A stretch of DNA of 64,000 nt from Alphaproteobacteria bacterium. GTDB lineage: Bacteria > Pseudomonadota > Alphaproteobacteria > UBA828. The position numbers and the translations under genes are program-made. Positions within the stretch are counted from its first letter, which is position 1. The number at the start of each line of letters is the position of its first letter. The notes under the pieces are model-generated. The model was not told where the DNA came from. It made no database searches and saw nothing but the letters and a program-made list of their open reading frames with translations. Positions 41,916 to 57,504 of this stretch are shown piece by piece. The stretch spans positions 864,001 through 928,000 of the forward strand of contig CBDEFM010000002.1 of the NCBI GenBank assembly GCA_965237415.1, in the 5' to 3' direction.

Positions 41916-42598
41916 CTGATGGCGACGCACACGCCGCTGTTCTTTGGCAGCGCGGCAGTGATGGCGTCTCCTGCGGGATTGTCGTCGCGATATCCCTGCG
42001 CGACAGCCCACTTCATCACCGCTCCGATACGCTGGCGCACCCGCCGCATGGTCTCGTTCTTCGTATGCCAGTGCGGGATCAGGACGGCCATCACGTCCGC
42101 TGTGTCGATTTGGTCGACCCGCTTCTGCCCGAGCCGCCGCATGGCGTAGTTCCTTAGGCTCGCCCGCCATTGCTTCTCGCTCTTGCCGGCGTCCTTCCAG
42201 CCTTCGCAGTGGATGCCGATCACGGTCTCGACCGCCTCGGCGAATGTCGGCACGTCCGGCTGACGTTTGAGTGCGAGCGGATCGCCGCCCGCCCGTGCAA
42301 TCTTCCGGTACTCGAAGGCCGTTTGCCGGGCTTCGGCCAGCGTGACATACGGAAAGCCACCCAACCCTGCGTCACGGCGAACGCCGTTGACGGTGCCGCG
42401 CCATATCCATTGCCTTGAGATCGATTTCCGCTTGCGCGATTGGCAAACCCGCAACCTGAGGCCGTGTTCGTCGCCGTAGACCCCAGGCTGGTCGACGTTT
42501 CGGACAAGAGCTGCCGTTAGTCGTCCTCCAGTATAGCCACAGGTCCGACGCACGGACGATTTGGTGCCTGCTCCGTCCGACGCATCCAAACCCTCCAT
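41916..42598 (-). pseudogene. Truncated P4-like tyrosine integrase (catalytic domain lost)
   Basis: RLTAALVR...GVYGDEHGLRLRV...DNPAGDAITAALPK, cut by IS256. Confidence 0.85.
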
Positions 42599-42819
42599 GG
42601 CCTAGAAGCCTTCTAAAATCGTACAGACCATTTGGTACATGGCCGGACATATCCCGTGTTACCGACACAACCCGGGCGCTCGTGTTGACGACGCGCTTGG
42701 CCGACGGTTAGACTCGCTACCCATCCGCAGCAGGACGCAACGATAACAATGGCTTGTGGGGAGGCTGAGGGGGCAGTGTCGCACTACAGCCGGGCAGTGA
42801 CGGGTTGGCAGGAGTCGGT

Positions 42820-43902
42820 ATGAGCGACATCGCCGTCGACCTGATCAACGTTACCAAGCGTTTCGGGCGGGATATCCTCGCCGTCGACGATCTGTCCCTG
42901 CACATCGCGCAGGGCGAGTACATTTCCCTCATCGGCCCATCGGGGTGCGGCAAGACCACGACGCTCCGCATGATCTCCGGCTTCGACGAACCGACCGACG
43001 GCCAGATCCTCATCGCTGGACACGACTGCACCCACCTCGAGCCGCACGAGCGCAACACCGCCATGGTTTTCCAGCACTTCGCGCTGTTCCCGCACATGTC
43101 GGTGGCGCAGAACGTCGAGTTCGGCCTGCGCATGCGCAAGGTGTCGGCGGCGGAACGCTCCCGGCGGGCGCTTGAGATGTTGCGCGCCGTTGACATCGAC
43201 GACCTGGCCGACCGCCCGATCCAGCAGCTCTCCGGCGGCCAGCAGCAGCGGGTGGGCTTAGCGCGCGCCCTAGTCACGCGCCCCGACGTGCTGCTGCTGG
43301 ACGAACCGCTGGGTTCGCTAGATGCGAACCTGCGCTTGCGCATGCAGCGCGAGCTGAGGCGCCTCAACACCGATTTCGGTGTCGCCTTCGTGCACGTCAC
43401 CCACACCCAGACCGAGGCCTTCGCGGTCTCCGACCGGGTGGTCATCATAAATCAGGGCCGGATCGAGCAGATCGGCCCGCCCGAGGAGGTGACCCACCGC
43501 CCGAAGAACCTGTTCGTCGCCCAGTTCGTGGGCAAGAACAACATCCTTCAGGGCGAGATCACCGGCGTGGAGGGGGGCATCGCCACCGTCGCCGGGCCGT
43601 CCGGCACATTCCGCGCGCGCATCGCCGACGACGCGCCGGCACGCAAGGACTGCCACGTGGTGGTGCGCGCGAGCCTCACCAATCTGGTGACCAACGGCGA
43701 GACGCCGGACAACACGGTCGAGGGCGAGGTGGCGTTCTCCATCTTCGAGACCTCGCAAATCGAGTTCAACGTCGACCTGCCGAGCGGCGACTCGCTCCGC
43801 GTGGACGAGTACGAGCCGCCGGCGACGATCACCGCGCTCAAGCGCGGCGACAAGGTGAGGGTGGGCTGGAACGCGGACGATGCCCTGGTGGTGTTCGAGT
43901 GA
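42820..43902 (+). CDS. ABC transporter ATP-binding protein (PotA-like)
   Basis: GPSGCGKTT, LSGGQQQR, LLLDEP, TOBE-like tail. Confidence 0.95.
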   Translation: MSDIAVDLINVTKRFGRDILAVDDLSLHIAQGEYISLIGPSGCGKTTTLRMISGFDEPTDGQILIAGHDCTHLEPHERNTAMVFQHFALFPHMSVAQNVEFGLRMRKVSAAERSRRALEMLRAVDIDDLADRPIQQLSGGQQQRVGLARALVTRPDVLLLDEPLGSLDANLRLRMQRELRRLNTDFGVAFVHVTHTQTEAFAVSDRVVIINQGRIEQIGPPEEVTHRPKNLFVAQFVGKNNILQGEITGVEGGIATVAGPSGTFRARIADDAPARKDCHVVVRASLTNLVTNGETPDNTVEGEVAFSIFETSQIEFNVDLPSGDSLRVDEYEPPATITALKRGDKVRVGWNADDALVVFE

Positions 43903-43962
43903 GCGCCCGGGCCACGCCGGCACGTGGGCGCGGGCGGCCGTGACCGGCGGGGCGGCAGTCAC

Positions 43963-44868
43963 GTGACGGACGTCGCACAAAGCCCTCCCAAGGCGCTTTC
44001 GCCGGGGATGACACTCACCAAGAAGCGCGCGCGCCAAGCCCTCCTGCTGGTCGCCGCGCCCACCATCCTGATGGTGCTCTTCTGCGGCATCCCGCTGGTC
44101 TCGGTCGTCGTCTTCAGCTTCTACAAGCCCTGGGCCTACGGCATGAAGCCGGGCTTCGTGTTCGACAACTACATCGAGTTCTTCGGCACCGCGACCTACC
44201 TGCAGACCCTCGGCTTCACCTTCCTGATCGCCATCATCGTGCTGCCGCTGATGGTGCTGCTCTGCTATCCCGTCGCCTACTACGTCTGCTTCTTCGTGAA
44301 GAGCGAGCGGCTCAAGCTCTACATCCTGCTTCTCTGCATCGTCCCCTTCTGGACCAGCGCGCTGATCCGCATGGTGGCGTGGCTGCCGCTGCTCGGGCGC
44401 AAGGGGTTGATCAACCAGATTCTGATGGGGATCGGCATTATCGACGAGCCGGTCGAGATCCTGCTCTACAGCCAACCCTCCATGGTGTTCTCCATGGCGA
44501 TCATCTGGTCGGTCTTCATGATCGGCCCGATCTATTTCTCCATGGCCAAGATCGACCGCCAGGTGATCGAGGCGGCGCGCGACCTCGGCGCCTCGGCCTG
44601 GACCACCTTCTGGCGGATCATCGTCCCCCTCACCAAGCCGGGTCTGGCGACCGGGATCCTTTTCGTGTTCGTCGTCATGATGGGCGAATTCGCGATCCAA
44701 AAGTTCATCGGCGGCGGCAAGACGACCATGCTGGCCAACGTGCTCATCCAGCAGCAGAGCCTCCTGCAGTGGCCCGCAGCGTCGGCGGTGGCAGTGGTCA
44801 TGGTGCTGGTCTCGATCCCAGTGATCGTGCTGATCTTCCAGTTCGTCAAGCTGCGTGAGGAGCTCTGA
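43963..44868 (+). CDS. ABC permease (PotB-like)
   Basis: TM segments, EAARDLGA loop. Confidence 0.92.
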   Translation: MTDVAQSPPKALSPGMTLTKKRARQALLLVAAPTILMVLFCGIPLVSVVVFSFYKPWAYGMKPGFVFDNYIEFFGTATYLQTLGFTFLIAIIVLPLMVLLCYPVAYYVCFFVKSERLKLYILLLCIVPFWTSALIRMVAWLPLLGRKGLINQILMGIGIIDEPVEILLYSQPSMVFSMAIIWSVFMIGPIYFSMAKIDRQVIEAARDLGASAWTTFWRIIVPLTKPGLATGILFVFVVMMGEFAIQKFIGGGKTTMLANVLIQQQSLLQWPAASAVAVVMVLVSIPVIVLIFQFVKLREEL

Positions 44869-44871
44869 GCC

Positions 44872-45753
44872 GTGCCGGAGCCCACGAGCTATCACGTCGC
44901 CAAGTTCGGCTGGGTGAAGATCGTGCTCGCGGTCTACGTGATGATCTTCGTGCTGATGCTCTACGGGCCGTTCATCGTCATGGCGATCCTCTCCTTCCAG
45001 GGCGAGAGAGGCGGGCCGACCTTCCCCATGCAGGGGACGAGCATTTTCTGGTACGAGCGGCTCTTCAACCCGTCGGGCACGGCACGCGACATCGGCGAGT
45101 ATGTCGGCGATTTCGGCAATGCCGGCCTGCGCTCGCTGGTGCTCGCGCTGCTCACCATGACCATCTCCACGGTGCTTGCCACCATGGCGGCGCAGGCCAT
45201 GCGCGCGCGGTTCGTGGGCGCCGGGCCGATCTTTTACGTCTACCTGGTCGGGATCATGATCCCGGGCGTCACGGTGGGCCTGGGTCACGCGCTCTTCTGG
45301 CAGGGCATCGGCATCGACAAGCACTGGCTGGGCACCACGCTGCCGGTCCACATCCTGTGGACCTTCCCGTTCTGCTTCATCGTGATGTTGACGGTGTTCA
45401 ACCGCTTCGACCGCTCCACCGAGGAGGCGGCGATGTGCCTCGGCGCCAACAGCTGGCGCACCTTCTGGCACATCACGCTGCCGATCATGAAGCCGGGGAT
45501 CATGGCGTCCGCGCTCTTCGGCTTCACGCTCTCCTTCGACGAATTCGCGCGCACCGTGCTGGTGTCCGGATCGCAGAACACGCTGCCCCTCGACGTACTG
45601 GGCGCGACCACGATCCGCATCACGCCACGCATCTTCGCCGTCGGCGTCATCATCACCCTCATCTCGTTCGCGGTGATCGGGATATTTGGCTACCTGATGA
45701 CCGCGAGCCGTTACCGGCCTCGCTTCACGGGCCAAGAGGAGCACCAGGTGTAG
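44872..45753 (+). CDS. ABC permease (PotC-like)
   Basis: EEAAMCLGA, FTLSFDEF. Confidence 0.92.
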   Translation: MPEPTSYHVAKFGWVKIVLAVYVMIFVLMLYGPFIVMAILSFQGERGGPTFPMQGTSIFWYERLFNPSGTARDIGEYVGDFGNAGLRSLVLALLTMTISTVLATMAAQAMRARFVGAGPIFYVYLVGIMIPGVTVGLGHALFWQGIGIDKHWLGTTLPVHILWTFPFCFIVMLTVFNRFDRSTEEAAMCLGANSWRTFWHITLPIMKPGIMASALFGFTLSFDEFARTVLVSGSQNTLPLDVLGATTIRITPRIFAVGVIITLISFAVIGIFGYLMTASRYRPRFTGQEEHQV

Positions 45754-45820
45754 TCGGGCCGGCCGGGCGCCGCCCGGACCGGATTCGATCGGAGAACGGA
45801 GACTTCAAAGGGAGGAAACT

Positions 45821-47179
45821 GTGGATAGCAAGCATCTCGAAACCAAATACGAACGTCTGTCGGATCGGATGGATCTCCATACCGCGATGGCGGCCGAAGA
45901 GAAGGCGATCAAGCGCTTCCGCGACGCCGAGGCGGAGGAGAAGACGGGCGACGGCATTGACCGCCGGACCTTCCTCGCCGCAGCGGGCGTGACCGCGGCG
46001 GCCGTTGGCACCGGCCTCAGCGCCGGCACCGCGCGCGCGGGCTTCGCGGACCGTGTGGCCGGCATCGAGCAGGACGACCCGATGCAGACCATCGGCCTCG
46101 GCGTCTCGGTGCAGGAGCGCTTCTTCAACAGGTTCAAGGAGGACACCGGCCTCGACGTGACCGGGACGGTGGCGGGCTTGAGCGAGATGATCTCCAAGTT
46201 CATCACCGGCGGCAACAAGACCTACTCGATGATCGAGACCAACGCCTACCGCCAGCCGGCGCTGCGCGAGGCCGAGGTGATCGTGCCGATCCCGGCCGAG
46301 AAGATCACCAACTGGGAGTTCGCCGATTCGCTCTATACCGAGCCCGGCCATATCGGCGCCGACGACGTGACCGGCTGGCCGTCCAAGATCGTCTATTGGG
46401 ACGAGAACAAGGACTCCTTCTACGGCGTGCCGCAGTTCTACAACATGGACGCGCTCGGCGTGCTGCCGCACAAGTTCGCGCCCACCCAGCCGGATTTCGC
46501 GATCCCCGATTCGCTCGGGCTGCTCTACACCGGCAAGTGGCGCGACGTGGATGCGACCGGCAAGACCTCGATCCAGAACGACGAGCTGATGGGGCCGCCG
46601 CGCGCCTACAGCTTCCTCTGGAAGAACGGGATCATGGACCCGCCCAAGGTCGGCAACACCGACATGCAGCCGGATGAGGTGAAGGAGGTCATCGACTACC
46701 TCATCGCCGCCAAGAACGACGGCGTGTTCCGCCTCATCTGGAACAACTACGGCGAGGCCGTGAACCTGCTCGCCTCCGAGGAGGTGTGGGGCATGGACTG
46801 CTGGAACCCGGTGGTCGAGGACGTGAAGAAGCGCGGCATCCCGTGCTGGTACGTCGATGTCTTCGAAGGCACCGCCGCCTGGGTCCACACCATGTGCCTC
46901 TCCAGCGAGGCGCCGGAGCCCGAGGTCGCCATGGCCTACATGGACTGGTGCCTCGACGGCTGGTGGGGCTCGGCGGTGGCGCCCCAGGGCTACTATTCGC
47001 CCTCGCCCGCCCCGGTGCTCAACTATCTGAGCGAGGAGGACTATCGCACCTGGTACCTGGGCAAGGGCCGCGACACCGGCCCGAAGACCAGGCGCCAGTC
47101 CAACATCGCGTTCTGGATGGTGTGGCCGACCCACGTCACCAATTACATCAAGGAGTGGAACCGCTTCAGCGCGGCCTGA
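45821..47179 (+). CDS. Tat-exported ABC substrate-binding protein (PotD/F-like) with long pre-Tat leader
   Basis: DRRTFL motif at about residue 47, AxA cleavage; GGAGGA RBS; paralog at 56200. Confidence 0.85.
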   Translation: MDSKHLETKYERLSDRMDLHTAMAAEEKAIKRFRDAEAEEKTGDGIDRRTFLAAAGVTAAAVGTGLSAGTARAGFADRVAGIEQDDPMQTIGLGVSVQERFFNRFKEDTGLDVTGTVAGLSEMISKFITGGNKTYSMIETNAYRQPALREAEVIVPIPAEKITNWEFADSLYTEPGHIGADDVTGWPSKIVYWDENKDSFYGVPQFYNMDALGVLPHKFAPTQPDFAIPDSLGLLYTGKWRDVDATGKTSIQNDELMGPPRAYSFLWKNGIMDPPKVGNTDMQPDEVKEVIDYLIAAKNDGVFRLIWNNYGEAVNLLASEEVWGMDCWNPVVEDVKKRGIPCWYVDVFEGTAAWVHTMCLSSEAPEPEVAMAYMDWCLDGWWGSAVAPQGYYSPSPAPVLNYLSEEDYRTWYLGKGRDTGPKTRRQSNIAFWMVWPTHVTNYIKEWNRFSAA

Positions 47180-47273
47180 TCCGCTCCTGTTCGACCAAGA
47201 GCGGCGCGGCCGAGAGCAAGATTATCGGCCGCGCCGCCGCTAACCGCCGCCGCTGCGCGAGGAATATCGTCGG

Positions 47274-48869
47274 ATGGCGCTGGCGCGGCCTAAGCACATC
47301 AAGACAGGCGGCGAAGCCCGCGAGGCGCTGATGGTGGGCTTCGGCCGCGCCGCGCGGCTCGCGGGGCTCACGCTCGGCCCCCACGGCGGCCGCGTGGTGC
47401 TGGAGCGCGCGGACGACTATCCCGAGCTCACCCGCGACGGCTTCACCGCGATCAGGGACCTGGAGGACGACGACCGCTTCGCGACCCTCGGCACGGAGCT
47501 GCTCAAGGCCTGCGTCAAGAAGACCCGGGACGCCGTCGGCGACGGCTCGACGACCACGGCGCTGCTCGCCGGCGCCTTCGCGAAGGCAGGACTGCGCCTG
47601 GTGGCGGCCGGGATCGACCCCCCCTCGGTGCGGCGCGGCTTCGACGGGCTCACGCGCGACGCGCTGGAAGCACTGAAGCGGCAGAGCGGCCCCGTTGGCG
47701 GCCACACGATGCTAGCCCAGCTGGCCCTCGTTGCGGCCGACGGCGACGACGAGATCGCGGGCCTCGTGGCCAAGGCGGTGGAAAGGCTCGGGCCCGAGGG
47801 CGTCGTCAACGTCTCCTATCATCAGAGCGTCGATACGACGATCGACTACATGAGCGGCATGGCCTTCGACCACGGCCTGCTGTCCCGCAATTTCCTGCTC
47901 AAGGCCGGCGAGACGGCGGTTGCGCTCGACCAGCCCCACCTGCTCATGTGCCAGGGCGAGCTGACCGAAGCGGCCCAGCTTGTGCCGGCGATGGAGGCGG
48001 CGCGCCAAAGCGGCCGCAGCCTGCTGGTGCTGGCCCAGGACGTCTCCGACCAGGCGCTCGCGGTCTTGCTCGCCAACCACCGCGAGGGGACGGTCCGCTG
48101 CGCGGCGGTGAAGGGGCCGGACTCCGGCATCTATCGCCATGTCGCGACCGACGACGTCGCGGTGCTCACGGGTGGGCGTCTGGTCGGCGAGGAAACCGGC
48201 CTATCGCCGGAGAAGATCGATGGCGCCGCGCTCGGCAGCGCCAAGCGGGCGGTCGTGGACGGGGTCTCCACCACAATCTTCAGCGGCGGTGGCGCGGCGG
48301 AGGCGGTGGAGCGGCGCGCGGCACAGCTTCGCGACGCGATCGGCCGCGAGCGCAAGAGCTACGACCGGGGCAAGCTGGAGGCGCGCCTCGCCCGGCTCGT
48401 CTCGGGCGTGGCCAACATCCGGGTCGGCGGCGTCACCGAGACCGCCTGGAAGGCGCGCCATCGCGCCTGCGAGAACGCGCTGAACACCGCCCGTGCCGCA
48501 GCGGCCGACGGTGTGGTCGCGGGTGGCGGCGTGGCGCTCGCACGCGCCGCCTTCGCCATGGAGGACGCCGCACCCGGTGCAGGCGATCCCTTGCGCCGGG
48601 CCTTCGCCCGCGCCCTGCAGGAGCCCTTCCGTCGCATAAGCGCGGCCGCCGGCTGCGAGCCGTCGCTCGCCCTCGAAGCATTGAGGCTAAAAGGGGCGGA
48701 GATCGGCTTCGACGCACGCACAGGCGCCTTCTGCCCCTATCTGGAGGCTGGCGTGGTCGATGCGGCCCGCGTAACGGCGACGGCACTCACCAACGCGGCC
48801 GTTACCGCTGGCCAGCTCTTGTCCACAGGATGCGTTGTCGCGCTGGCCCGGCGGCCGGACGCGGTGTAG
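47274..48869 (+). CDS. Divergent GroEL (Cpn60) paralog, no adjacent groES
   Basis: TLGPHG, TRDG, GDGSTT, GMAFDHG, YDRGKLEARLARL, GVVAGGG, GVVDAARV; lacks GGM tail. Confidence 0.9.
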   Translation: MALARPKHIKTGGEAREALMVGFGRAARLAGLTLGPHGGRVVLERADDYPELTRDGFTAIRDLEDDDRFATLGTELLKACVKKTRDAVGDGSTTTALLAGAFAKAGLRLVAAGIDPPSVRRGFDGLTRDALEALKRQSGPVGGHTMLAQLALVAADGDDEIAGLVAKAVERLGPEGVVNVSYHQSVDTTIDYMSGMAFDHGLLSRNFLLKAGETAVALDQPHLLMCQGELTEAAQLVPAMEAARQSGRSLLVLAQDVSDQALAVLLANHREGTVRCAAVKGPDSGIYRHVATDDVAVLTGGRLVGEETGLSPEKIDGAALGSAKRAVVDGVSTTIFSGGGAAEAVERRAAQLRDAIGRERKSYDRGKLEARLARLVSGVANIRVGGVTETAWKARHRACENALNTARAAAADGVVAGGGVALARAAFAMEDAAPGAGDPLRRAFARALQEPFRRISAAAGCEPSLALEALRLKGAEIGFDARTGAFCPYLEAGVVDAARVTATALTNAAVTAGQLLSTGCVVALARRPDAV

Positions 48870-48893
48870 GGCCTCGCTTTGCCGCGCCGGCGC

Positions 48894-50939
48894 TCAGGCG
48901 TCGGTGATGCGGAGGAATCCGTAATCGTCGACCCGGAGCGTCTGGCCCGGATGGACGAGCGTGGTGGCGGTATCCTCCTCCACGATCAGCGGCCCCTCGA
49001 GCTCAGCGCCGGGGGGCAGCCGGTCGCGCGCGTAGACCGCGGCCTCGTGGCGGCCGTCTTCGGCGAAATCGGCCATGCGCGCGGGCCTGGACGCCGCCTC
49101 AAGCGAGCGCCCTTCCGCCGAGAGCCTCTTCATCTCGGGCCTCGGCACCTTGGCGGACGCGGTGAGCCGGTAGGTCACGAACTCCACCGGCGTGTCGTCG
49201 AGGCGGAAGGTGTAGGTCTTCTCGTGCGCCTCGTGGAAGGCAGCGAGGATGGCGTCCACCCGCGCGGCGGCGATGTCCACGGGCACCGTGACCGAGTGCT
49301 CCTGCCCGAGATAGCGCAGGTCGATGCGGCCCTCGAAGGCGATCTCCGCCTCCCCCATGTGGGCGTCGGTGCGGAAGTAGCGCTCCGCCTCCTGACGGAG
49401 GCCGGCGAAGACCCCCCGCACGTCGCCCGCCGTCACCTCTTCGTCGCGCCTGAGCACGGTCTGCGTGAAGTCGCGCCGGGGCTCGGTGGCCAGCATCCCC
49501 CAGGCAGAGAAGAGCCCGGGATAGAGCGGCACGATGATCTCCTTCACGCCGAGCTCGCGGCCGAGCGGCGCGCCATGCATGGGGCCGCCGCCGCCGCCCA
49601 CGACCAGCGCGAAGTCGCGCGGGTCGTGGCCCCGCTGGATTGAGACCAGCTTCAGCGCGTTGATCATGTTGGCTTCCACCGTCCGGATGACCGCGACCGC
49701 CGCCGCGACCACGTTGATGCCGAGGCCCTGCGCGATCGTCTCCATCGCGGCCCGGGCCTTGCCCTCGTCGAGATCGAACTGCCCGCCGGCGAAGTTGGTG
49801 GGGTTGATGACGCCGGTGATGAGCTTGGCGTCGGTCACGGTGGGCTCGGCGCCGCCCCGGCCGTAGCAGGCGGGTCCCGGATCGGCGCCGGCGGAGACCG
49901 GCCCCACCTTCAGGAGTCCCGCCTTGTCGAGCCAGGCGATGGAGCCGCCGCCCGCGCCGATCTCGACGATGTCCACAACCGGAACCCGCAGCGGATAGCC
50001 GAACTGTGTGCGGCTATATTCCAGCCGGTATTCGGTCGTGATCTTCGGTGCGCCGTCCTCGATGGTGGTGCACTTCGCGGTGGTGCCGCCGATGTCCAGA
50101 TAGATCACCCGCGGCTCGTCGCAAAGGTCGCTGACGATGGCGGCGCCGTTGCAGCCCGCCGCCGGCCCCGATTCCATGAGGGTGATGGGGTGTTCCTTGG
50201 CCCAGGCGAAGCTGGTGGTGCCGCCGTTGGACTGCATGGCGGCGTAGGCGCAGTTGACGCCGGCGCCGCCCAACGCCTCCTCCAGGCGGCCGAAGTAGCT
50301 TTGCACGATGGGCTGCACATAGGCGTTGAGCACCGCCGTGTTGGCGCGCTCGTACTCGCGCCACTCGCGGGTGATCTCGTGCGAGGCGGTGATCGAGACG
50401 CCCTCCAGCCGCTCGCGCAGATGGGCCGCCGTCTCGGCCTCGTGCCGGGGCGCGACATAGCTGTGGAGGAACTGGATCGCGATCGCCTCGACCTCTTCCT
50501 CCCGGCAGCGCTGGACGATGTGGTCGAGGTCCGTCTTCTCCAGCGGCCTCAGCACGTTGCCCGCTGCATCCATGCGCTCGCGGACCTCGAAGCGCAGCAG
50601 GCGCGGCACGAAGGGGCGCTCCTTCTCGAAGCGCAGGTTGTAGAGGTCGGGCCTGTTGCCGCGCTGGATCTCCAGCACGTCGCGGAAGCCTGCGGTGGTG
50701 ACGAGCGCGGTGCGGGCACCCTTGCGCTCGGTGATGGCGTTGATCACCGTGGTCCCGCCGTGGACGAAGAAGTCCACCTCGCCAGGCGCTAGCCCTGAGA
50801 GCGCGATGGTGTCGATCACGCCCTGGGTCAGGTCACCCGGCGTGGTCAGCGACTTCGCCGTGCGCAGCGTCCCATCGGCGTCGTCGAAATAGACCAGATC
50901 GGTGAAGGTGCCGCCGATATCGGACGCGAGCCGGCCCAT
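48894..50939 (-). CDS. Hydantoinase A / oxoprolinase ATP-binding subunit
   Basis: SDIGGTFTD, ESGPAAG, DIGGTT, IGAGGGS, GPVSAGADPGP. Confidence 0.93.
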   Translation of the reverse strand: MGRLASDIGGTFTDLVYFDDADGTLRTAKSLTTPGDLTQGVIDTIALSGLAPGEVDFFVHGGTTVINAITERKGARTALVTTAGFRDVLEIQRGNRPDLYNLRFEKERPFVPRLLRFEVRERMDAAGNVLRPLEKTDLDHIVQRCREEEVEAIAIQFLHSYVAPRHEAETAAHLRERLEGVSITASHEITREWREYERANTAVLNAYVQPIVQSYFGRLEEALGGAGVNCAYAAMQSNGGTTSFAWAKEHPITLMESGPAAGCNGAAIVSDLCDEPRVIYLDIGGTTAKCTTIEDGAPKITTEYRLEYSRTQFGYPLRVPVVDIVEIGAGGGSIAWLDKAGLLKVGPVSAGADPGPACYGRGGAEPTVTDAKLITGVINPTNFAGGQFDLDEGKARAAMETIAQGLGINVVAAAVAVIRTVEANMINALKLVSIQRGHDPRDFALVVGGGGGPMHGAPLGRELGVKEIIVPLYPGLFSAWGMLATEPRRDFTQTVLRRDEEVTAGDVRGVFAGLRQEAERYFRTDAHMGEAEIAFEGRIDLRYLGQEHSVTVPVDIAAARVDAILAAFHEAHEKTYTFRLDDTPVEFVTYRLTASAKVPRPEMKRLSAEGRSLEAASRPARMADFAEDGRHEAAVYARDRLPPGAELEGPLIVEEDTATTLVHPGQTLRVDDYGFLRITDA

Positions 50940-50953
50940 GGTCGGTCCGCGCG

Positions 50954-52714
50954 TCAGGCGGCGGCCGCGCGCAGCCTGGCGGTCGCCTCCTCGTCGATTG
51001 CGCGCCCGCCCGCGGCGATGACGACGCCGTAGTCCTCGCGCGCCTGGTCGGCGGAGATGTAGTCCGCGCGCACCTCCGCGAGCACCTCGTCGGCCGGCCG
51101 CTCGAAGGGATCGCCGTAGCCGCCGCCGCCGCCGGTGAACATGCGGATGATGTCGCCCCGCTTCATGATCGTGGTGGGCGCCCTGGCGGCGCGCCGGGCG
51201 TCGTTGCCGACGTGCAGCTCGAAGTAGTTGACCGAGCCTTTGTTGCCGCCCTCGCGCGCCCAGGGTTTCTCGATCGAGCGGCCGTAGCTCGCCGAAAGCA
51301 CCGCGTCGTCGGTCATGATCTCGTACTCGCGGATCGAGCCGTAGCCGCCCCGGTAACGGCCGGCGCCGACGCCGCCCGGCGTGTTGAGCGTGTACTGGTT
51401 GACCCGCACCGGGAACTTCGCCTCCAGCAGCTCGATGGAGTAGTTGAAGGTGTCGCCGTTGGTGATGGGGCTGGTGACGCAGTTGCCGTCACGCTCGTCG
51501 GTGGCGCCCCAGCCGACCATGCTGGGTTCGATCATCACCCAGGGCTCGCCCTTGGCGCGGTCGTGGCCGCCCAGCACGGTCACGCAGAGGCTGTTGGCGC
51601 TGCCCATGCTGACCCGCTTGGGCGCGATGGGGGCGAGCGCCTTCCACGCGAGCTCCGAGGCCTGGCCGGTGCCCTCGTAGTACCAGCCGACCGGCGCGGG
51701 CTTGGTGGCCGTGAACACCGTGCCGTCGGGTGCTACCACCTTCAGCGGCCGGAACCAGCCCTCGTTCGACGGCGACTGGGGATCGACGATCGCCTTGAAG
51801 ACCGTCTTTACCGCCGAGACCAGAGCCGAGCGCGAGCAGTTGACCGGCCCCTGGAGCTGCTCGCAGGAGCCCGTGTAGTCGACGGTGACGGTGTCGCCCT
51901 CGATGGTAACGGCCACCCTGGTCGGGAAGCGCTCCTCGCTGATGCCGTCGCCGTCCACCCAGTCCTCGGCTTCGTAGGTGCCGTCCGGCAGCGCCGCCAC
52001 GGCCTCGCGGCTCACCCGCTCGCTGGTCTCGAGGATATGGCGGAAGGTTTCTGCCACCGCGCGCTTGCCATACTTCTCGCAGAGCTCGAGGCAACGATTC
52101 TCGGCAATGCGGACCGAGGCCAGCGCCGCGTTGAGATCGCCCAGCGCCATCTTCGGCAGGCGCACGTTGGCCGCGATCATCTCGAAGATGGCGTCCTGGC
52201 GCTCGCCTTCCTTGTAGACGTGGATGCCGGGGAAGCAGATCCCTTCCTGGAATATCTCGGTGGCGTCCGCCGGCAGCGAGCCCGGCGACTTGCCGCCGAC
52301 ATCGGTCCAGTGCGAAATCGAGATGGCGAAGGCGAACAGCTCGCCGTCCACGAACACCGGCTTGATGACGCCCACGTCGTTGTAGTGGGTGCCGCCGCGG
52401 TACGGGTCGTTGAGCATGTAGATGTCGCCCGGCCGGATGCGGCCTGCGAACTTCTCCTTGATGATGTTGATCTGGAGCGAGAAGGTTCCGGTGAAGACGG
52501 TGATCCCGTTGGTCTGGGACACCAGCGCGCCGTCCGCGTCGCAGAAGCCGCAGGCGAAGTCGAGCACCTCGTAGATGACCGGGCTCATGCTGCTCCGCGC
52601 GAGCACCACGCCCATCTCGTCGGCCACCGCCAGCAGCTTGCCGCGCACGATCTCGCGGGTCACCACGTCGGTCTCGAAACCACCGCTTTCGCGTCCGTTC
52701 ATGCCGCTTGCCAT
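50954..52714 (-). CDS. Hydantoinase B / oxoprolinase subunit
   Basis: NDPYRGGTHYND, HWTDVGG, GAGRYRGG, TGGGGGYGDP. Confidence 0.93.
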   Translation of the reverse strand: MASGMNGRESGGFETDVVTREIVRGKLLAVADEMGVVLARSSMSPVIYEVLDFACGFCDADGALVSQTNGITVFTGTFSLQINIIKEKFAGRIRPGDIYMLNDPYRGGTHYNDVGVIKPVFVDGELFAFAISISHWTDVGGKSPGSLPADATEIFQEGICFPGIHVYKEGERQDAIFEMIAANVRLPKMALGDLNAALASVRIAENRCLELCEKYGKRAVAETFRHILETSERVSREAVAALPDGTYEAEDWVDGDGISEERFPTRVAVTIEGDTVTVDYTGSCEQLQGPVNCSRSALVSAVKTVFKAIVDPQSPSNEGWFRPLKVVAPDGTVFTATKPAPVGWYYEGTGQASELAWKALAPIAPKRVSMGSANSLCVTVLGGHDRAKGEPWVMIEPSMVGWGATDERDGNCVTSPITNGDTFNYSIELLEAKFPVRVNQYTLNTPGGVGAGRYRGGYGSIREYEIMTDDAVLSASYGRSIEKPWAREGGNKGSVNYFELHVGNDARRAARAPTTIMKRGDIIRMFTGGGGGYGDPFERPADEVLAEVRADYISADQAREDYGVVIAAGGRAIDEEATARLRAAAA

Positions 52715-52818
52715 CGCATCGTCCTCCACGGGAGCCTGACGCTCCGCAGTCGCTCCTAGTCTCTCACCGCCACGGAACCGCGGTCAACGCGGGATGCACC
52801 TGCAGGCGGCACTCATGG

Positions 52819-53814
52819 TCAGACCGTGACCACGATTTTGCCGCATTGGGCATTGGATTCCATGTAGCGGTGTGCATCCGCAATCTCCTCCAGCGGGAAC
52901 GCGCGGTCGATCACGGGCGCGAGCGCACCGCTGGCGAGGCCGGCGAAGATGGCGTCCCGCGCCGCCGCGAAGCGTGCTTCGTCGCGCACGAAGTCGAGGA
53001 CCTGATAGCCGACGATGGTAAGCGAATTCGCCAGCATCGGCATGAGCGGATAGGCGGTCTCTCCAGGATGCAGGGCGCCATATTCGTAGATGGTGCCATA
53101 CGGCGCTGCGGCGCCGCAGAGCGTCGTCAGCAGCGGACCTGCAATCGGATCGAAAACCACACGCGCGCCGGCATCGCCGGTGATCTCCATAACCCGCGCC
53201 GGCAGGTCCTCTTCGTCCGTCGCCACCACGTGATCGGCGCCGAAGCCGAGGAGTGCATCCTTCTTGGCTGCGGTCCGGGTGGTCGCGATCACGGTGGTGC
53301 CGCGTTCCTTGGCGATCTGGATTGCGGCGAGGCCGACGCTGCTACTCGCGGCGGTGATGATCACGGCGTCGTCGGGCCCTAGATCGCCATAGTGGACCAG
53401 CGCACCGTAGGCCGTGAGGTAGGCCATCCAGAGCGCAGCACCTTGGGCAGGCGTAAGCTCGGCCGGGTAAGGCGCCGCGATCTCGGCCGGCACCGTGGCG
53501 CTCTCGCCGTAGACGCCCTGCCGGGTCTGGGAGAGGGCGAAGGACGGGACCGTGGCGATGCGTTCGCCCTCATTGACGTTCGTCACCCCTTCGCCGACGG
53601 CTTCTACGACGCCGGCGGCTTCGTAGCCGATGCGGGAGGGAAAGACCGGCCGTTCGTGATAGATGCCCTCGCGCAGCATGACCTCCGCCCGGTTGAGGCC
53701 GATCGCCTCGACCCTGATCCGGACCTCACCGGGCCCCGGATCCACCTCCGGCACCTCGTCGAGGCGCAGCACCTCGGGCCCGCCAGTCTCGTGGAATCGT
53801 ACGATTCGAGCCAT
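52819..53814 (-). CDS. MDR-family NADPH:quinone oxidoreductase-like protein
   Basis: GGPEVL, GYEAAGVV, AASSSVGLAAIQ, GKIVV. Confidence 0.9.
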   Translation of the reverse strand: MARIVRFHETGGPEVLRLDEVPEVDPGPGEVRIRVEAIGLNRAEVMLREGIYHERPVFPSRIGYEAAGVVEAVGEGVTNVNEGERIATVPSFALSQTRQGVYGESATVPAEIAAPYPAELTPAQGAALWMAYLTAYGALVHYGDLGPDDAVIITAASSSVGLAAIQIAKERGTTVIATTRTAAKKDALLGFGADHVVATDEEDLPARVMEITGDAGARVVFDPIAGPLLTTLCGAAAPYGTIYEYGALHPGETAYPLMPMLANSLTIVGYQVLDFVRDEARFAAARDAIFAGLASGALAPVIDRAFPLEEIADAHRYMESNAQCGKIVVTV

Positions 53815-54114
53815 GGTCCGCTCCCCGCCCATTCGGCCCGCAACAGTGCCGGGCACCCATTGATCCGGACGAAAACTAGCACAATCACACCGTGGCAGTT
53901 CAGGTGTGCCGACCGTTTCGGGCGACGAGTGTTTTGTGAAATTTTTGCCAGCCCGCACCATGGTCCTGTGCACAGCCCGTGCCGCCCATCTGGACCCTGC
54001 GCTTCCGCGTGTCCATACTGTCTGCGTGACGCCGCGAGACCGACAGGGCCAGGTCGAAGCGGCGAGATGATTTGCGCGGGGAACGGTTCCCATTTGGGAG
54101 GAGGAGCGCCCACC

Positions 54115-55251
54115 ATGCCGCCTATTCCGTCCGCCCTGGAGATCACGCGGGACATCGTCCGCATGGACACCCGCAACCCGCCCGGCCGTGAGGTGGATTG
54201 CGCCCATTATCTGGGCGACCTGCTCAGCGCGGCGGGGATCGAGGTCTCCTATCACGAGTTCGCGCCGGAGCGGACGAGCCTGGTCGCGGTGCTGCGCGGC
54301 GAGGGCGGAAACGGGAAGAAGCCGCTCTGCTTCGGCGGGCATATCGACGTCGTTCCCCTCGGCGTCAAGGAATGGTCGGTCGATCCCTTCGGCGCCGAGA
54401 TCGTGGACGGCAAGCTCTTTGGCCGCGGCACCACCGACATGAAGGCCGGCATCTCCTCATTCGTCCACGTCGCGCTCAAACTCGCGGCTGAGGAGAAACG
54501 CGGCGCGGCGGACATGGTGATGGCGATTTGCGCCGGCGAGGAGACCGGCTGCGAAGGCTCATATCACCTGGCCGAGATCGGCGCGCTCGACGAGGCCGGC
54601 GCCATCGTCATCGCCGAGCCGACCTCGAATTATCCGATCCTCGGCCACAAGGGCGCTCTCTGGCTGAAGGTGGAGACCGAAGGCATCACCGCCCACGGCT
54701 CGATGCCCGAGCACGGCGACAACGCGCTCTACAAGGCGGCGCGCTCGGTGACCAAGCTCGAGGAGTTCGATTTCAACGTGATGCCTCACAAGCTGCTTGG
54801 GAGGTCGACCCTCAATGTCGGCACCATGCGGGGCGGGCTCAATCTCAACTCGGTGCCGGACCACGCCGAGTTCACCATCGACATCAGGACGCTGCCCGAA
54901 CAGGACCACGCGAAGATCCTCTCGGGCCTGGAAGGGTATCTCGGCGACGAGAACAAGATCGCCCGCGTGGTCGATTGCGGCGGTGTGCACACCCCGCACA
55001 CCCATCCGTGGATTCAGGAGATTTACGCGGTGATGGAGCCGATCCTCGGCGAGAAGATCGAGCCGCGCGGCGCGCCCTACTTCACCGACGCCTCGGCGCT
55101 GATGCCGGCCTACGGGCGTCCGCCGACGATAATCCTCGGGCCCGGCGAGATGCACATGGCCCATCAGACCGACGAGTACTGCCCCGTGGCGCATGTCGAG
55201 CAGGCAGCCGAGGTCTATGAGATTCTAGCCCGCCGCTGGTGCGGCTACTGA
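54115..55251 (+). CDS. M20 metallo-amidohydrolase (ArgE/DapE family)
   Basis: GHIDVVP, GRGTTDMK, GEE, AEPT, AHQTDE. Confidence 0.92.
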   Translation: MPPIPSALEITRDIVRMDTRNPPGREVDCAHYLGDLLSAAGIEVSYHEFAPERTSLVAVLRGEGGNGKKPLCFGGHIDVVPLGVKEWSVDPFGAEIVDGKLFGRGTTDMKAGISSFVHVALKLAAEEKRGAADMVMAICAGEETGCEGSYHLAEIGALDEAGAIVIAEPTSNYPILGHKGALWLKVETEGITAHGSMPEHGDNALYKAARSVTKLEEFDFNVMPHKLLGRSTLNVGTMRGGLNLNSVPDHAEFTIDIRTLPEQDHAKILSGLEGYLGDENKIARVVDCGGVHTPHTHPWIQEIYAVMEPILGEKIEPRGAPYFTDASALMPAYGRPPTIILGPGEMHMAHQTDEYCPVAHVEQAAEVYEILARRWCGY

Positions 55252-56199: not shown

Positions 56200-57504
56200 A
56201 TGGACGACGGACATCTTGGTAAAAGACACGACAAGTTCTGCGACGAGGTCGAGACGCGCTCGCGCACGGCGGCGGGCCTCGACCGGCGCGAGTTCATGGC
56301 GGCGGCGGGTGCCACGGCCGTGGTCGCGGCGGCGGGCTTGGCAGCGACCGAGGCCGAGGCCGCGTTCTCAGACCGGGTCGCCGGCATCACCCAGGACGAG
56401 CCGATGCAGCTCATCGGCACCGGGGTCTCCGCGCAGGAGCGCTTCTTCAAGAAGTTCGAGGAGATGAGCGGCGGGCTCCAGGTGACCGGCCAGGTCGCGA
56501 GCCTCGCCGATTCGGTCCAGAAGTGGATCACCGGCGGTTACGAGACGTTCTCGATGATCGAGACCAACGCCTTCCGCACGCCGGCGCTACGGGACGCGGA
56601 GACGATCGCGCCGATCCCGCTGGAGAAGATCACTAACTGGGAGTTCGCCGACACGCTCTTCTCCGATCCCGCCCATGTCGGCGCCGACCACACCAGCGGC
56701 TGGCCGGTCGATGTGGTCTATTGGGACGACAGCCGCACCTCGTTCGGGATGCTGCCGCAGATTTACAACATGGATGCGCTCGGCATCCTCCCCCACAAGT
56801 TCGCCGACACCCAAGCGGACCGCAACACGCCGGATACCCTCGGCGTGCTCTACGAGGGCCAGTGGCGCGACGTGGACGTGCGGGGCAAGGTCTCGATCCA
56901 GAACGAGGACCTGATTGGCCCGCCGCGCTGCGCGAGCTATCTGGTGAAGAACCGCAAGATGGACCCGGTCAAGGTCGGCTTTGGCGATCTCGAGCCCGAC
57001 GAGCTCAAGAACGTCATCGACTTCCTGATCGGCGCCAAGCAGGACGGCGTCTTCCGCGCGCTCTGGACCAACTACGGCGAGGCCGTGAACCTGCTCGCCT
57101 CCGAGGAGGTCTGGGGCATCGACTGCTGGAACCCGGTCGTCGAGGACGTGAGGAAACAAGGCGTCCCCTGCTGGTACGTGGACGTGTGGGAGGGCACCGG
57201 CGCCTGGTACTACGGCATGTGTCTCTCCAGCGAGGCGCCGCAGCCCGAGGTCGCTATGGCCTACATGGACTGGTGCCTCGAAGGCTGGCGCGGCGCGGCC
57301 GACGCCGAGCAGGGCTACTACTCGCCCACTCCCGACACCGCGCGCAACTACATGAGCGAGGACTCGTGGCTGAAGTGGTACGAGGGCCGCGGGCGCGACA
57401 CCGGACCCAAGCTCCGGCGCCAGTCGAACATCGCCTACTGGATGATCTGGCCGAGCCAGATCACCCTCTTCATCAAGGAGTGGAACCGCTTCCTCGCCGC
57501 CTGA
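56200..57504 (+). CDS. Second Tat-exported substrate-binding protein, paralog of 45821-47179
   Basis: DRREFM Tat motif; long identical blocks (NYGEAVNLLASEEVWG, RRQSNIA). Confidence 0.87.
   Translation: MDDGHLGKRHDKFCDEVETRSRTAAGLDRREFMAAAGATAVVAAAGLAATEAEAAFSDRVAGITQDEPMQLIGTGVSAQERFFKKFEEMSGGLQVTGQVASLADSVQKWITGGYETFSMIETNAFRTPALRDAETIAPIPLEKITNWEFADTLFSDPAHVGADHTSGWPVDVVYWDDSRTSFGMLPQIYNMDALGILPHKFADTQADRNTPDTLGVLYEGQWRDVDVRGKVSIQNEDLIGPPRCASYLVKNRKMDPVKVGFGDLEPDELKNVIDFLIGAKQDGVFRALWTNYGEAVNLLASEEVWGIDCWNPVVEDVRKQGVPCWYVDVWEGTGAWYYGMCLSSEAPQPEVAMAYMDWCLEGWRGAADAEQGYYSPTPDTARNYMSEDSWLKWYEGRGRDTGPKLRRQSNIAYWMIWPSQITLFIKEWNRFLAA

Follow-up and report, generated by a model that had tools for sequence, protein, structure and literature searches.

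Extra copies of GroEL are common, and few have a known reason to exist. The window analysed here, a stretch of 64,000 nucleotides, encodes a GroEL paralog, termed GroELx, behind the genes of an ABC transporter and facing those of a hydantoinase-like enzyme (HyuAB), and thereby raises the question of what such a chaperonin is for and which protein it might serve. The best explanation is that GroELx is functional and belongs to a small subfamily of GroEL not described before, a reading to which, jointly with the dedicated-accessory mechanism set out below, we give a probability of about 0.4. The subfamily offers a clean case, with one catalytic residue replaced throughout, a fixed place in one module and two candidate clients.

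Organisation of the locus

The features of the locus are as follows.

42685..42714, + strand: sigma-70-like promoter match upstream of the ABC ATPase gene (consensus scan, 9/12 hexamer matches)
42805..43902, + strand: PotA-like ABC ATPase (ABC_tran and TOBE_2; Pfam PF00005, 135 bits, and PF08402, 26.9 bits)
43924..44868, + strand: ABC permease 1 (BPD_transp_1; Pfam, 44.4 bits)
44872..45753, + strand: ABC permease 2 (BPD_transp_1; Pfam, 40.1 bits)
45821..47179, + strand: SBP1, periplasmic PotD/PotF-like binding protein (Pfam SBP_bac_8, 45.6 bits)
47201..47237, + strand: perfect 13-bp G+C-rich hairpin in the 94-nt spacer between SBP1 and GroELx (RNA fold)
47274..48869, + strand: GroELx, GroEL paralog of 531 aa with a Cpn60 fold and N401, lacking a GGM tail and an adjacent groES
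48894..50939, - strand: HyuA-like subunit (hydantoinase/oxoprolinase A, caprolactamase-alpha-like; Pfam Hydantoinase_A, 293.9 bits, with N and C domains)
50954..52729, - strand: HyuB-like subunit (hydantoinase B/oxoprolinase; Pfam Hydantoinase_B, 539.8 bits)
52819..53814 (start approximate), - strand: NAD(P)H quinone oxidoreductase-like protein of the zinc-ADH superfamily (Pfam ADH_zinc_N and ADH_N)
54130..55251 (start approximate), + strand: M20 ArgE/DapE-family deacylase (Pfam Peptidase_M20 and M20_dimer)
56200..57504 (start approximate), + strand: SBP2, paralog of SBP1 (about 65% identity) with an MDDGHL... extension

The promoter match is weak evidence, because one site was found against 0.6 expected. 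The HyuA-like gene is convergent with GroELx and lies 24 bp from its stop codon; the two Hyu subunits score below the cut-offs of the NCBIfam models CapA (507 bits, cut-off 1000) and CapB (285 bits), the oxidoreductase matches TIGR02824 (216 bits) over residues 180-507 of a long ORF, and the deacylase exceeds the cut-off of TIGR01910 (253 versus 217.6 bits). Residues 31-523 of GroELx match Pfam Cpn60_TCP1 (PF00118, 171.8 bits) and E. coli GroEL chains from the PDB match it over its full length (345 bits), in agreement with the preliminary description of a full-length Cpn60-fold ORF downstream of an ABC operon and convergent with HyuA/HyuB. All three domains are visible in an AlphaFold2 model (mean pLDDT 88.6), to which GroEL chains were the Foldseek matches (E 1e-50, TM 0.64-0.79), and the equatorial-intermediate-apical fold of a group I chaperonin is complete. 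Identity to canonical GroEL is only 35-37%, and GroELx passes the looser NCBIfam subfamily model NF009487 (450 versus 352).

The same description had noted the lack of a groES gene and of a GGM tail, and both points held. GroELx ends in ...CVVALARRPDAV (...ALARRPDAV), and a C-terminal Gly-Met repeat was found in no member of its family, whereas the two other GroELs of the same genome end in GGM repeats. The gene directly upstream of GroELx is SBP1 and there is no groES next to it; the genome contains three Cpn60 matches but only two Cpn10 matches, each Cpn10 gene being directly upstream of one canonical groEL.

The hairpin in the SBP1-GroELx spacer is not followed by a T-run, no terminator-like site was called there, and the fold of the whole spacer is not significant (z-score -1.13). 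In most related loci, distant ones included, the SBP stop codon is closely followed by a G+C-rich hairpin. The junction is bridged by RNA-library contigs from two studies (X12, 46756-47431; X16, 46756-47418; X17, 46756-47673), although such contigs may contain DNA and a contig spanning two genes is not proof of one transcript; their depths cannot rank genes and were not taken as expression levels.

A GroEL subfamily with a replaced catalytic residue

GroELx was reported to carry Asn at the position of D398, which we take to be the catalytic Asp of E. coli GroEL. This was confirmed in an HMMER alignment to 4pkn_G/1aon_A, where, as far as residue 418, GroELx numbering runs three ahead of that of E. 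coli, so that D398 aligns with N401, and in a MAFFT alignment including E. coli groL from MG1655. The motifs quoted with it (HRACENALNT, GLLSRNF, KGPDSGIYR, GDGSTT and GGG) are all present in GroELx. The prospect that homologs might keep Asp398 was not borne out, as none of the 40 full-length family members has Asp at this position (Asn in 36, Thr in 3, Ser in 1), compared with all 16 canonical GroELs. In E. coli GroEL, the D398A replacement leaves ATP and GroES binding intact and strongly slows hydrolysis, and it is because of this mutant that a role of GroELx as a slow timer is suggested; from this one residue, GroELx would be hydrolysis-poor, and another residue may compensate for the lost Asp.

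The remainder of the ATP pocket is well preserved. GroELx has the GDGTTT-type loop, GGG, D87 and D495 of the nucleotide-binding site, and among the 40 members T30, G32, P33, D87, G88, G414, G416 and D495 are invariant, T91 is invariant or nearly so and T89 is mostly Ser. R452, E461 and S463, which form ring contacts, are largely preserved, and most hydrophobic groove positions are retained (L237, L259 and F204). Family-wide replacements are found at positions presumably tied to GroES or substrate binding in E. coli GroEL (Y199L, Y203N/H/D, V263L, V264A/T, R268E and A241R), and GroELx itself differs from canonical GroEL at R197H, Y199L, Y203N, V263L, V264A, R268E, F281S, K327G and E363G. Besides position 398, there are 32 further fixed differences from canonical GroEL; fixed family differences are densest in the intermediate domain (10/89, compared with 11/273 in the equatorial and 12/186 in the apical domain). 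Together with the loss of the catalytic Asp in all members, this density could be taken to mean that GroELx is no longer a folding machine and has a structural, regulatory or sensing role, for example as a scaffold that binds ATP or as a stable component of transporter or enzyme. Such a role appears improbable, given that 107 conserved columns, including the hinge glycines and the ATP pocket, are common to the GroELx family and canonical GroEL, as a working conformational cycle would need.

The GroELx clade, of about 45 protein clusters, has a support of 100/100 in a tree of 56 rows. The dN/dS of GroELx is 0.246 (16 sequences, 120 pairs) and similar across its three domains (0.24-0.28), compared with 0.08-0.16 for the neighbouring genes; within the same six genomes the values are 0.268 for GroELx and 0.113 for canonical GroEL1, and the gene evolves 2-11 times faster than the latter. 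This faster evolution relative to both neighbours and canonical GroEL, and a score of 436.4 bits against the 582.1-bit cut-off of the NCBIfam GroEL equivalog (TIGR02348), might suggest a decaying groEL duplicate, the outcome that a dN/dS near 1 had been expected to reveal. The value is instead about 0.25; the open frame is intact in 20 of the 22 GroELx matches in the genomes of the family, the other two ending at contig edges, no internal stop was found in any of the 22, and family-specific residues persist from 93% down to 44% identity. Intact frames, residue conservation and dN/dS effectively refute the decay reading, to which the confident structural model also runs counter, and we leave it only a minute probability. 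Judged from its sequences, GroELx is a conserved subfamily under purifying selection and not a decaying duplicate.

The clade is rare: of 49 genomes from its order, 19 were found to carry it, and of 401 genomes sampled from its class, two. A plasmid search matched 1363 records, all at 38.5% identity or less and none a member of the family. In a profile search of 1.84 billion representatives, high scorers of 830-1081 aa were rejected as tandem double-Cpn60 proteins outside the family, none of them fused to a binding protein or HyuAB. Among five loci recovered from metagenome contigs with distant members, L051 was set aside at 30% identity as lying outside the family; the related-locus search of genome contigs with distant members recovered only two genomes that were already known.

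A conserved gene neighbourhood

The neighbours of GroELx homologs are not unrelated genes, and the survey proposed at the outset found hydantoinase and Tat-signal binding-protein genes conserved beside them. The conserved order is ABC ATPase, two permeases, Tat-signal binding protein, GroELx, HyuB/HyuA and M20 deacylase. The ATPase (83-92% identity), permease 1 and permease 2 (91-99% identity) are each kept in 15 of 16 related loci, and 15 of these 20-kb loci also have SBP1 directly upstream of GroELx, on its strand. Counting the window and two further loci, a binding-protein gene directly precedes GroELx in 18 of 21 contexts (15/16 loci, L047, L050 and the window), and HyuAB is near it in 16 of the 20 that could be assessed (12/16 loci within 10 kb, the window, L048, L049 and L050). 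Down to identities of 45%, GroELx is again linked to a Tat binding protein and to HyuAB, and its position is conserved across contexts that carry the labels of different classes. No conserved regulator was found ahead of the ABC operon, where the genes vary between loci.

GroELx could also be a third general or stress-specialised chaperonin that borrows GroES from a groESL operon, its position being functionally meaningless. The genome has two groES genes, the ring-contact and ATP-binding residues are kept, and additional groEL genes without a GroES are frequent (770 of 4,861 genomes in an excerpt of PMC5406781). This alternative is nevertheless hard to reconcile with a position conserved down to 45% identity, the gain and loss of GroELx together with the module, the family-wide replacement of GroES/substrate-binding positions and an evolution 2-11 times faster than that of canonical GroEL1, and it is considered improbable. 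The altered catalytic residue, the lack of a GroES gene and the fixed place behind a binding-protein gene suggest that GroELx is probably a dedicated helper of the transporter/HyuAB module and not a general folder.

Candidate clients of GroELx

The module is predicted to combine an ABC importer of the PotABCD type, whose binding protein is exported by Tat, with an ATP-dependent, lactamase-like HyuA/HyuB enzyme and a deacylase of the M20 family. Within it, GroELx would bind ATP, hydrolyse it slowly and act without GroES encapsulation, serving one of the module's proteins as a holdase/foldase under ATP control. By gene order, adjacency favours the binding protein as that client, and the SBP precursor is our tentative first choice. 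Its N-terminus is unusual: SBP1, with a ribosome-binding site (GGGAGGAA) 5 nt before GTG 45821, has a conserved 47-residue extension (V/MDSKHLE...) before a twin-arginine signal with RR at residues 48-49, and its RRTFL Tat motif scores 19.5 bits with Pfam TAT_signal, under the 22.7 cut-off. The extension of SBP2 is shorter, with RR at about residue 29. N-terminal extensions of 28-47 residues (MDSKHL...) occur in all proteins of the SBP clade at 54% identity or more and are absent from 25 outgroup binding proteins (42% identity or less), which carry ordinary short Tat signals. TatC is encoded in the genome.

The binding-protein precursor would have to fold in the cytoplasm ahead of Tat export, and the extension ahead of the twin-arginine motif may be a docking element for GroELx. 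In its most specific form, GroELx would be a chaperonin-type Tat proofreading chaperone that docks the MDSKHL... extension, holds or folds the precursor and, through ATP binding and slow hydrolysis, releases it to TatBC; we regard this as a speculative version of the SBP reading. No clade-specific Cys, His or Trp of the cofactor type was found in the SBP (C342 and C377 are also present in the outgroup), which counts against the SBP reading. For SBP1, an AlphaFold2 model built on 15 aligned rows was too low in confidence to use (mean pLDDT 35.6), and a complex prediction of GroELx 1-531 with SBP1 1-80, run with an uncertain partner fold and without controls, scored 0.00 against a mark of 0.32, a value that speaks neither for binding nor against it.

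In a set of 44 genomes of the family, 17 have both GroELx and the SBP clade, 25 have neither and two fragmented genomes differ (G028 with GroELx only; G029 with GroELx and an SBP2-type match only), and among the 401 class genomes the same two contain both. HyuA orthologs occur in genomes together with GroELx and the SBP clade, so that the candidates are not separated by phyletic distribution. GroELx may instead be a dedicated assembly or folding helper of the HyuA/HyuB enzyme, its place behind SBP being operon history only. HyuA and HyuB are large (681 and 591 aa), which would make a folding route that bypasses GroES encapsulation plausible, and the arrangement would parallel that of GroEL-like genes in di-iron monooxygenase clusters; according to excerpts of PMC11057499 and PMC10653785, SDIMO and gbu function depends on cluster-encoded GroELs. 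Besides the proximity of HyuAB in most contexts, L048, where the adjacent SBP1 is absent, and L039/G042, where it is an internally deleted remnant, keep an intact GroELx with HyuAB adjacent. In L049, HyuB, HyuA and then GroELx lie on one strand, the gene upstream of GroELx thus being not a binding protein but a distant HyuA (27-39% identical to that of the window). These loci argue against the SBP precursor as client. L050 has GroELx directly before HyuB-HyuA, but as it is flanked there by SBP and HyuB on one strand, adjacency does not discriminate. Contigs of coinciding length (15706, 14830 and 7816) hint that further GroELx members sit on the same contigs as HyuA orthologs.

Other loci point away from HyuAB. 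In G039, G033 and G003, megabases separate the HyuA ortholog (83-88% identity) from the ABC-SBP1-GroELx block, GroELx staying with the ABC/SBP genes, and L040 has the SBP1 and GroELx pair without permeases, beside a dimethylformamidase-like gene and with no HyuAB within 10 kb. These genomes have 18-36 HyuA paralogs but only one or two GroELx genes, and G030 has 36 HyuA matches and no GroELx. The related caprolactamase CapAB has moreover been produced in E. coli (an excerpt of PMC8453981). We therefore regard HyuAB as a possible but less likely client than the SBP precursor.

Each outcome would have its own consequences. If the client is the Tat-exported binding protein, chaperonins would be linked to Tat quality control and the clade-specific signal-peptide extension would be explained; should the proofreading mechanism be true, GroELx would be the first protein of the GroEL family with a Tat substrate as its dedicated client, and no chaperone dedicated to the solute-binding protein of a transporter would have been known before it. 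If the client is HyuAB, the principle of a cluster-encoded GroEL would extend from di-iron monooxygenases to ATP-dependent lactamases, of practical use in expressing such enzymes, e.g. for lactam or nylon-monomer hydrolysis. In either case, natural D398N/T/S chaperonins bear on the ATP turnover required by a GroEL-type machine.

Comparison with known systems

The preliminary description had not recognised this context as described, and no paper describing this GroEL/transporter/HyuAB arrangement was found; the review PMC5904260 contains no mention of '398', 'MmoG' or 'client'. With canonical GroEL/GroES, GroELx has in common the three-domain fold, ATP pocket, hinge glycines and ring-contact residues, and it differs by D398N, the lack of an adjacent groES and of a GGM tail, and its location in a transporter operon. 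The laboratory mutant D398A replaces the same Asp but in an otherwise canonical GroEL, whereas GroELx has a natural Asn (Thr or Ser in some relatives) together with further fixed differences.

The GroELs of SDIMO clusters (MmoG/MimG/PrmG), with which GroELx had been compared, are likewise GroES-less and GGM-less, lie within a catabolic cluster and are thought to serve the enzyme of that cluster; an excerpt of PMC11057499 reports that downstream genes including GroEL are needed for heterologous growth. The comparison stands as an analogy and fails as a statement of relatedness. The one sequence of this type compared comes from the smo cluster of Rhodococcus sp. WAY2 pRWAY02. This GroEL shares 50% identity with that of E. 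coli, keeps D398, Y199, Y203, F204, V263, V264, F281 and K327, which GroELx mostly does not, and nests among canonical GroELs (100/99), apart from the separate 100/100 clade of GroELx. No monooxygenase component was found among the 33 ORFs scanned at 27.6-63.5 kb of the window, and the related loci consist of ABC, SBP, HyuAB and M20 genes in place of a monooxygenase cluster. On this one sequence, tree and gene context rule out assignment of GroELx to the MmoG/MimG type.

The gbu cluster of Clostridia, which converts gamma-butyrobetaine to TMA, is also a catabolic cluster with a groEL-like gene, and native GroES/GroEL-like proteins were required for its function at 37 C in a heterologous host (an excerpt of PMC10653785). 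The gbu proteins, likened to GroELx here by description, are used with a GroES-like partner and belong to unrelated taxa and another pathway. Chlamydial GroEL2 and GroEL3 are, like GroELx, extra paralogs with diverged functional residues and no GroES of their own (PMC1892554, in excerpt). GroELx scores 120.5 and 127.1 bits with the GroEL2_Chlamy and GroEL3_Chlamy models, below the cut-off of 600, and is thus not a member of either.

Cytoplasmic chaperones encoded beside a Tat-exported client include the TorD/DmsD family and the trigger-factor paralog PceT, which hold the precursor via an unusually long signal peptide until it is export-competent. Their known clients are cofactor-containing redox enzymes and not solute-binding proteins. 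The TorD/DmsD family has no homology to GroELx, whose only Pfam match is Cpn60_TCP1, so that the likeness would be functional and is hypothetical, while PceT provides a precedent for the paralog of a general chaperone having turned client-specific.

Fold, motifs and catalytic residue

GroELx (P0001), the GroEL paralog encoded at 47274-48869 (+), represents a conserved, intact and rare GroEL subfamily that keeps the nucleotide pocket and has lost the catalytic aspartate. In this subfamily, residues of the apical and intermediate domains are altered, a dedicated GroES gene is lacking, and the gene occupies a fixed position within a single uptake-and-hydrolysis module. The ORF encodes 531 residues, of which 31-523 match Cpn60_TCP1 (Pfam, 171.8 bits); the protein aligns over its full length with E. 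coli GroEL chains (~345 bits), and an AlphaFold2 model obtained from a 16-row family alignment contains all three GroEL domains (mean pLDDT 88.6) and matches GroEL chains in Foldseek with E ~1e-50 and TM 0.64-0.79. These results agree with the full-length Cpn60 ORF claimed in the preliminary description, and the motifs quoted there (HRACENALNT, GLLSRNF, KGPDSGIYR, GDG(S)TT and GGG) are all present. In the HMMER alignment with the E. coli chains, P0001 positions run 3 ahead of E. coli positions as far as residue 418, which pairs D398 with N401; MAFFT alignment including groL of E. coli MG1655 gave the same assignment, confirming the proposed Asp-to-Asn replacement. The functional roles of the named E. 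coli residues are those we take from the GroEL literature. The genome has three Cpn60 and two Cpn10 matches, each of the two groES genes lying directly upstream of one canonical groEL. Both canonical GroELs end in GGM repeats and the C-terminus of GroELx lacks a Gly-Met tail, so that the reported absence of groES and of a GGM tail holds.

Conservation and selection

In a search of 5.8 billion proteins, relatives of GroELx were graded from 93% to 45% identity (P0002-P0045), below which identity dropped to the ~38% of ordinary GroELs. When 40 full-length members were compared with 16 canonical GroELs, position 398 was N (36), T (3) or S (1) in the family and D in 16/16 canonical sequences. T30, G32, P33, D87, G88, G414, G416 and D495 are invariant in the family, D52 is retained in 34/40 members, and the ring-contact positions R452, E461 and S463 are mostly retained. 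Family-wide replacements include R197H, Y199L, Y203N/H/D, A241R, V263L, V264A/T, R268E, F281S, K327G, E363G and E388A. A total of 33 positions are fixed differently between GroELx and canonical GroEL, most densely in the intermediate domain (10/89, versus 11/273 equatorial and 12/186 apical), and 107 further conserved columns are common to both.

The Nei-Gojobori dN/dS of GroELx was 0.246 (16 orthologs, 120 pairs), with 0.24-0.28 in all three domains, and that of eight neighbouring genes was 0.077-0.158. In the same six genomes, values of 0.268 for GroELx versus 0.113 for canonical GroEL1 were obtained, dN being 2-11 times higher for GroELx. A maximum-likelihood tree of 56 rows placed the 17 GroELx rows in a single clade with 100/100 support and a long stem. 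A decaying groEL copy is effectively ruled out by the graded conserved family, the dN/dS and this clade. The preliminary description had named two contrary outcomes, homologs keeping Asp398 among unrelated neighbours and a dN/dS near 1; neither was seen, as Asp398 occurs in 0/40 members, the binding-protein gene SBP1 adjoins in most loci and dN/dS is 0.246.

Outside the GroELx clade, the divergent single GroEL-like proteins P0154 and P0203 carry S and N at position 398, respectively, so the aspartate has been lost more than once. Five public-database proteins (P0129, P0131, P0132, P0134 and P0135; 830-1081 aa) comprise two tandem Cpn60 units, with 30-37% identity to GroELx and 33-46% to canonical GroEL, and P0132 has N at position 398 in one half; these may be natural fused chaperonins or merged gene calls.

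Genomic context

The ABC operon upstream and the convergent hydantoinase A/B genes of the preliminary description are seen in the window, where HyuA and HyuB (HyuAB) denote hydantoinase/oxoprolinase-like, caprolactamase-like subunits:

42805-43902 (+), ABC ATPase, first gene of the operon, followed by two permeases
45821-47179 (+), SBP1, PotD-like binding protein with twin-arginine signal
47274-48869 (+), GroELx, 94 nt downstream of the SBP1 gene
(-), HyuA-like, HyuB-like and quinone-oxidoreductase-like genes, convergent with GroELx
(+), M20 ArgE/DapE deacylase, beyond the HyuAB and oxidoreductase genes
56200-57504 (+), SBP2, second binding-protein paralog, ~65% identity, shorter MDDGHL... extension

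SBP2 has no ABC genes of its own adjoining and occurs in nearly every GroELx genome. In sixteen 20-kb loci of related genomes compared with the window proteins, SBP1 lies directly upstream of GroELx in 15/16, the ATPase and both permeases are present in 15/16, and HyuA/HyuB lie inside the locus in 12/16. The loci devoid of HyuAB have an acetyl-CoA-synthetase-like neighbour (L041, L042), a CT_A_B carboxyltransferase-domain gene of 5-oxoprolinase/KipA type (L043) or a dimethylformamidase-beta-like neighbour (L040); in G039, G033 and G003 a HyuA ortholog (83-88% identity) is located megabases from GroELx. L040, which also lacks permeases, is the second SBP1-GroELx pair of its genome. This genome, G042, carries two GroELx genes: the L039 copy (76% identity), where GroELx is intact, HyuAB is adjacent and SBP1 is an internally deleted remnant (region 8515-9105), and the L040 copy (58%), preceded by an intact SBP1-like gene, with TauD, luciferase-like and TPP-enzyme genes also nearby.

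More distant members (45-60% identity) were recovered from metagenome contigs:

L050, ABC, permease, permease, SBP, GroELx, HyuB, HyuA, M20, class-III aminotransferase, on one strand
L047, permease, SBP, GroELx
L048, ABC, permease, permease, GroELx; HyuA/HyuB are convergent and a binding-protein gene is absent
L049, HyuB, HyuA, GroELx, with HyuA 27-39% identical and split over two frames

With the window included, GroELx directly follows a binding-protein gene in 18/21 contexts and has HyuAB nearby in 16/20 assessable ones. Contigs of equal length hint at possible further co-location with the binding protein (14835, 5158, 7211) and with HyuA (15706, 14830, 7816). The M20 and aminotransferase genes of L050 (15406-17948), the most complete of the distant operons, come after HyuB-HyuA on the same strand and fit a path from lactam through omega-amino acid to transamination, as in caprolactam degradation (PMC6061476, PMC8453981).

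The own genome has 35 Hydantoinase_A matches, one of which, besides the HyuA of the module, lies in the window at 18561-20684 (+), and the counts in five related genomes are 18-36. For ATP-dependent enzymes of the hydantoinase/oxoprolinase type, these numbers amount to an unusually strong expansion within the lineage. The module in the window is flanked by transposase genes, three of Mutator/IS256 type and two of rve type, and by one truncated phage-type integrase comprising only arm-binding and central domains (34514-35467 (-), 38452-39714 (-), 40639-41883 (+), 41855-42598 (-), 59915-61099 (+) and 61841-63508 (+)); the ABC operon of other genomes is preceded by different genes, which are not mobile. 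Against L028 of genome G043, dS forms a mosaic across the module (42805-55251), with 0.293 for GroELx, 0.272 for the ABC ATPase, 0.042 for SBP1, 0.046 for the oxidoreductase and 0.10-0.12 for the permeases and HyuAB, a pattern suggesting that recombination has occurred within the module or that GroELx is under a different mutational or codon regime.

Expression signals

A promoter-like site precedes the ABC ATPase gene, and no T-run terminator was found between SBP1 and GroELx. Their spacer contains a 13-bp G+C-rich hairpin (47201-47237) whose fold z-score is not significant; in most loci, a comparable hairpin comes after the stop codon of the SBP gene. Metatranscriptome contigs from two studies bridge the junction (X12, 46756-47431; X16, 46756-47418; X17, 46756-47673), although RNA-library contigs may contain DNA and a contig spanning the junction is not proof of one transcript; others cover the remaining module.

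Binding-protein clade and distribution

All members of the SBP1/SBP2 clade (at least 54% identity) start with MD(S/D/N)(K/R/A/G)H(L/V/I) and a charged stretch, the twin arginine coming only at residues 29-48; SBP1 starts at GTG 45821, with GGGAGGAA 5 nt upstream. This motif is absent from the 25 next-nearest binding proteins (at most 42% identity), which have ordinary short Tat signals. The genome encodes TatC, and no clade-specific Cys, His or Trp hinting at a cofactor was found in the clade.

GroELx is present in 19/44 genomes of the taxonomic family, own genome included (own genus 17/20, one other genus 1/1, eight other genera 0/22), 19/49 of the order and 2/401 of an even class sample. The distribution of the SBP clade nearly matches: within the 44-genome set both occur in 17 and neither in 25, the two exceptions being fragmented (G028, 62% complete, GroELx only; G029, GroELx and an SBP2-type match only), and both occur in the same 2/401 class genomes. 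None of 1363 matched plasmid records exceeded 38.5% identity to GroELx. A family profile run against 1.84 billion 50%-identity representatives returned only P0031, truncated P0024, P0130 (44% identity, Ser at position 398) and one fragment above the canonical level; source names of cluster members are 'Rhodospirillales bacterium', 'Rhizobiales/Hyphomicrobiales bacterium' and 'Gammaproteobacteria bacterium'. The stretch 45700-49000 of the window is near-identical in 20 public runs from 9 studies, six being metatranscriptomes and some labelled sponge metagenome.

Function and candidate clients

The E. coli GroEL D398A mutant hydrolyses ATP slowly. By analogy, GroELx, which is predicted to bind ATP, would hydrolyse it slowly, and it may act without encapsulation on one client of its module. 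The Tat binding-protein precursor is the favoured candidate, because its gene directly adjoins GroELx, the SBP1-GroELx pair can stand alone (L040), the ABC-SBP-GroELx block stays intact when HyuAB relocates, and the clade-specific N-terminal extension is a plausible docking element. HyuAB is a serious rival as client, since GroELx accompanies it where an intact adjacent SBP1 is missing (L048, L039) and follows HyuB and HyuA in L049; however, a general HyuAB role is at odds with the mere one or two GroELx genes in genomes with 18-36 HyuA paralogs, and with one genome that has 36 matches and no GroELx. The client-specific chaperone first proposed is partly supported, as regards a conserved, intact subfamily in a recurring module, while mechanism and client are inferred.

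Comparison with known systems

Extra groEL genes without groES are common (770/4,861 genomes; PMC5406781), multi-chaperonin bacteria retain at least one GGM-tailed copy (PMC11978752), and GroELs are encoded in di-iron monooxygenase (SDIMO) clusters (PMC11057499) and near the gbu cluster (PMC10653785). The GroELx genome retains two GGM-tailed GroELs. Chlamydial GroEL2/3 models place GroELx far below their cut-offs, and it is not a member. The context was said not to be recognised as described, and indeed no chaperonin linked to a hydantoinase/caprolactamase cluster or a Tat-exported binding protein was found in the literature at abstract or passage level. The one SDIMO-cluster GroEL compared retains both D398 and the aromatic residues of the apical domain and groups with canonical GroELs in the 56-row tree, whereas GroELx is separate; the likeness to MmoG/PrmG thus stands as analogy and fails as membership. 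GroELx is real and, in an undescribed context and with an undescribed signature, resembles GroEL paralogs dedicated to a client or module.
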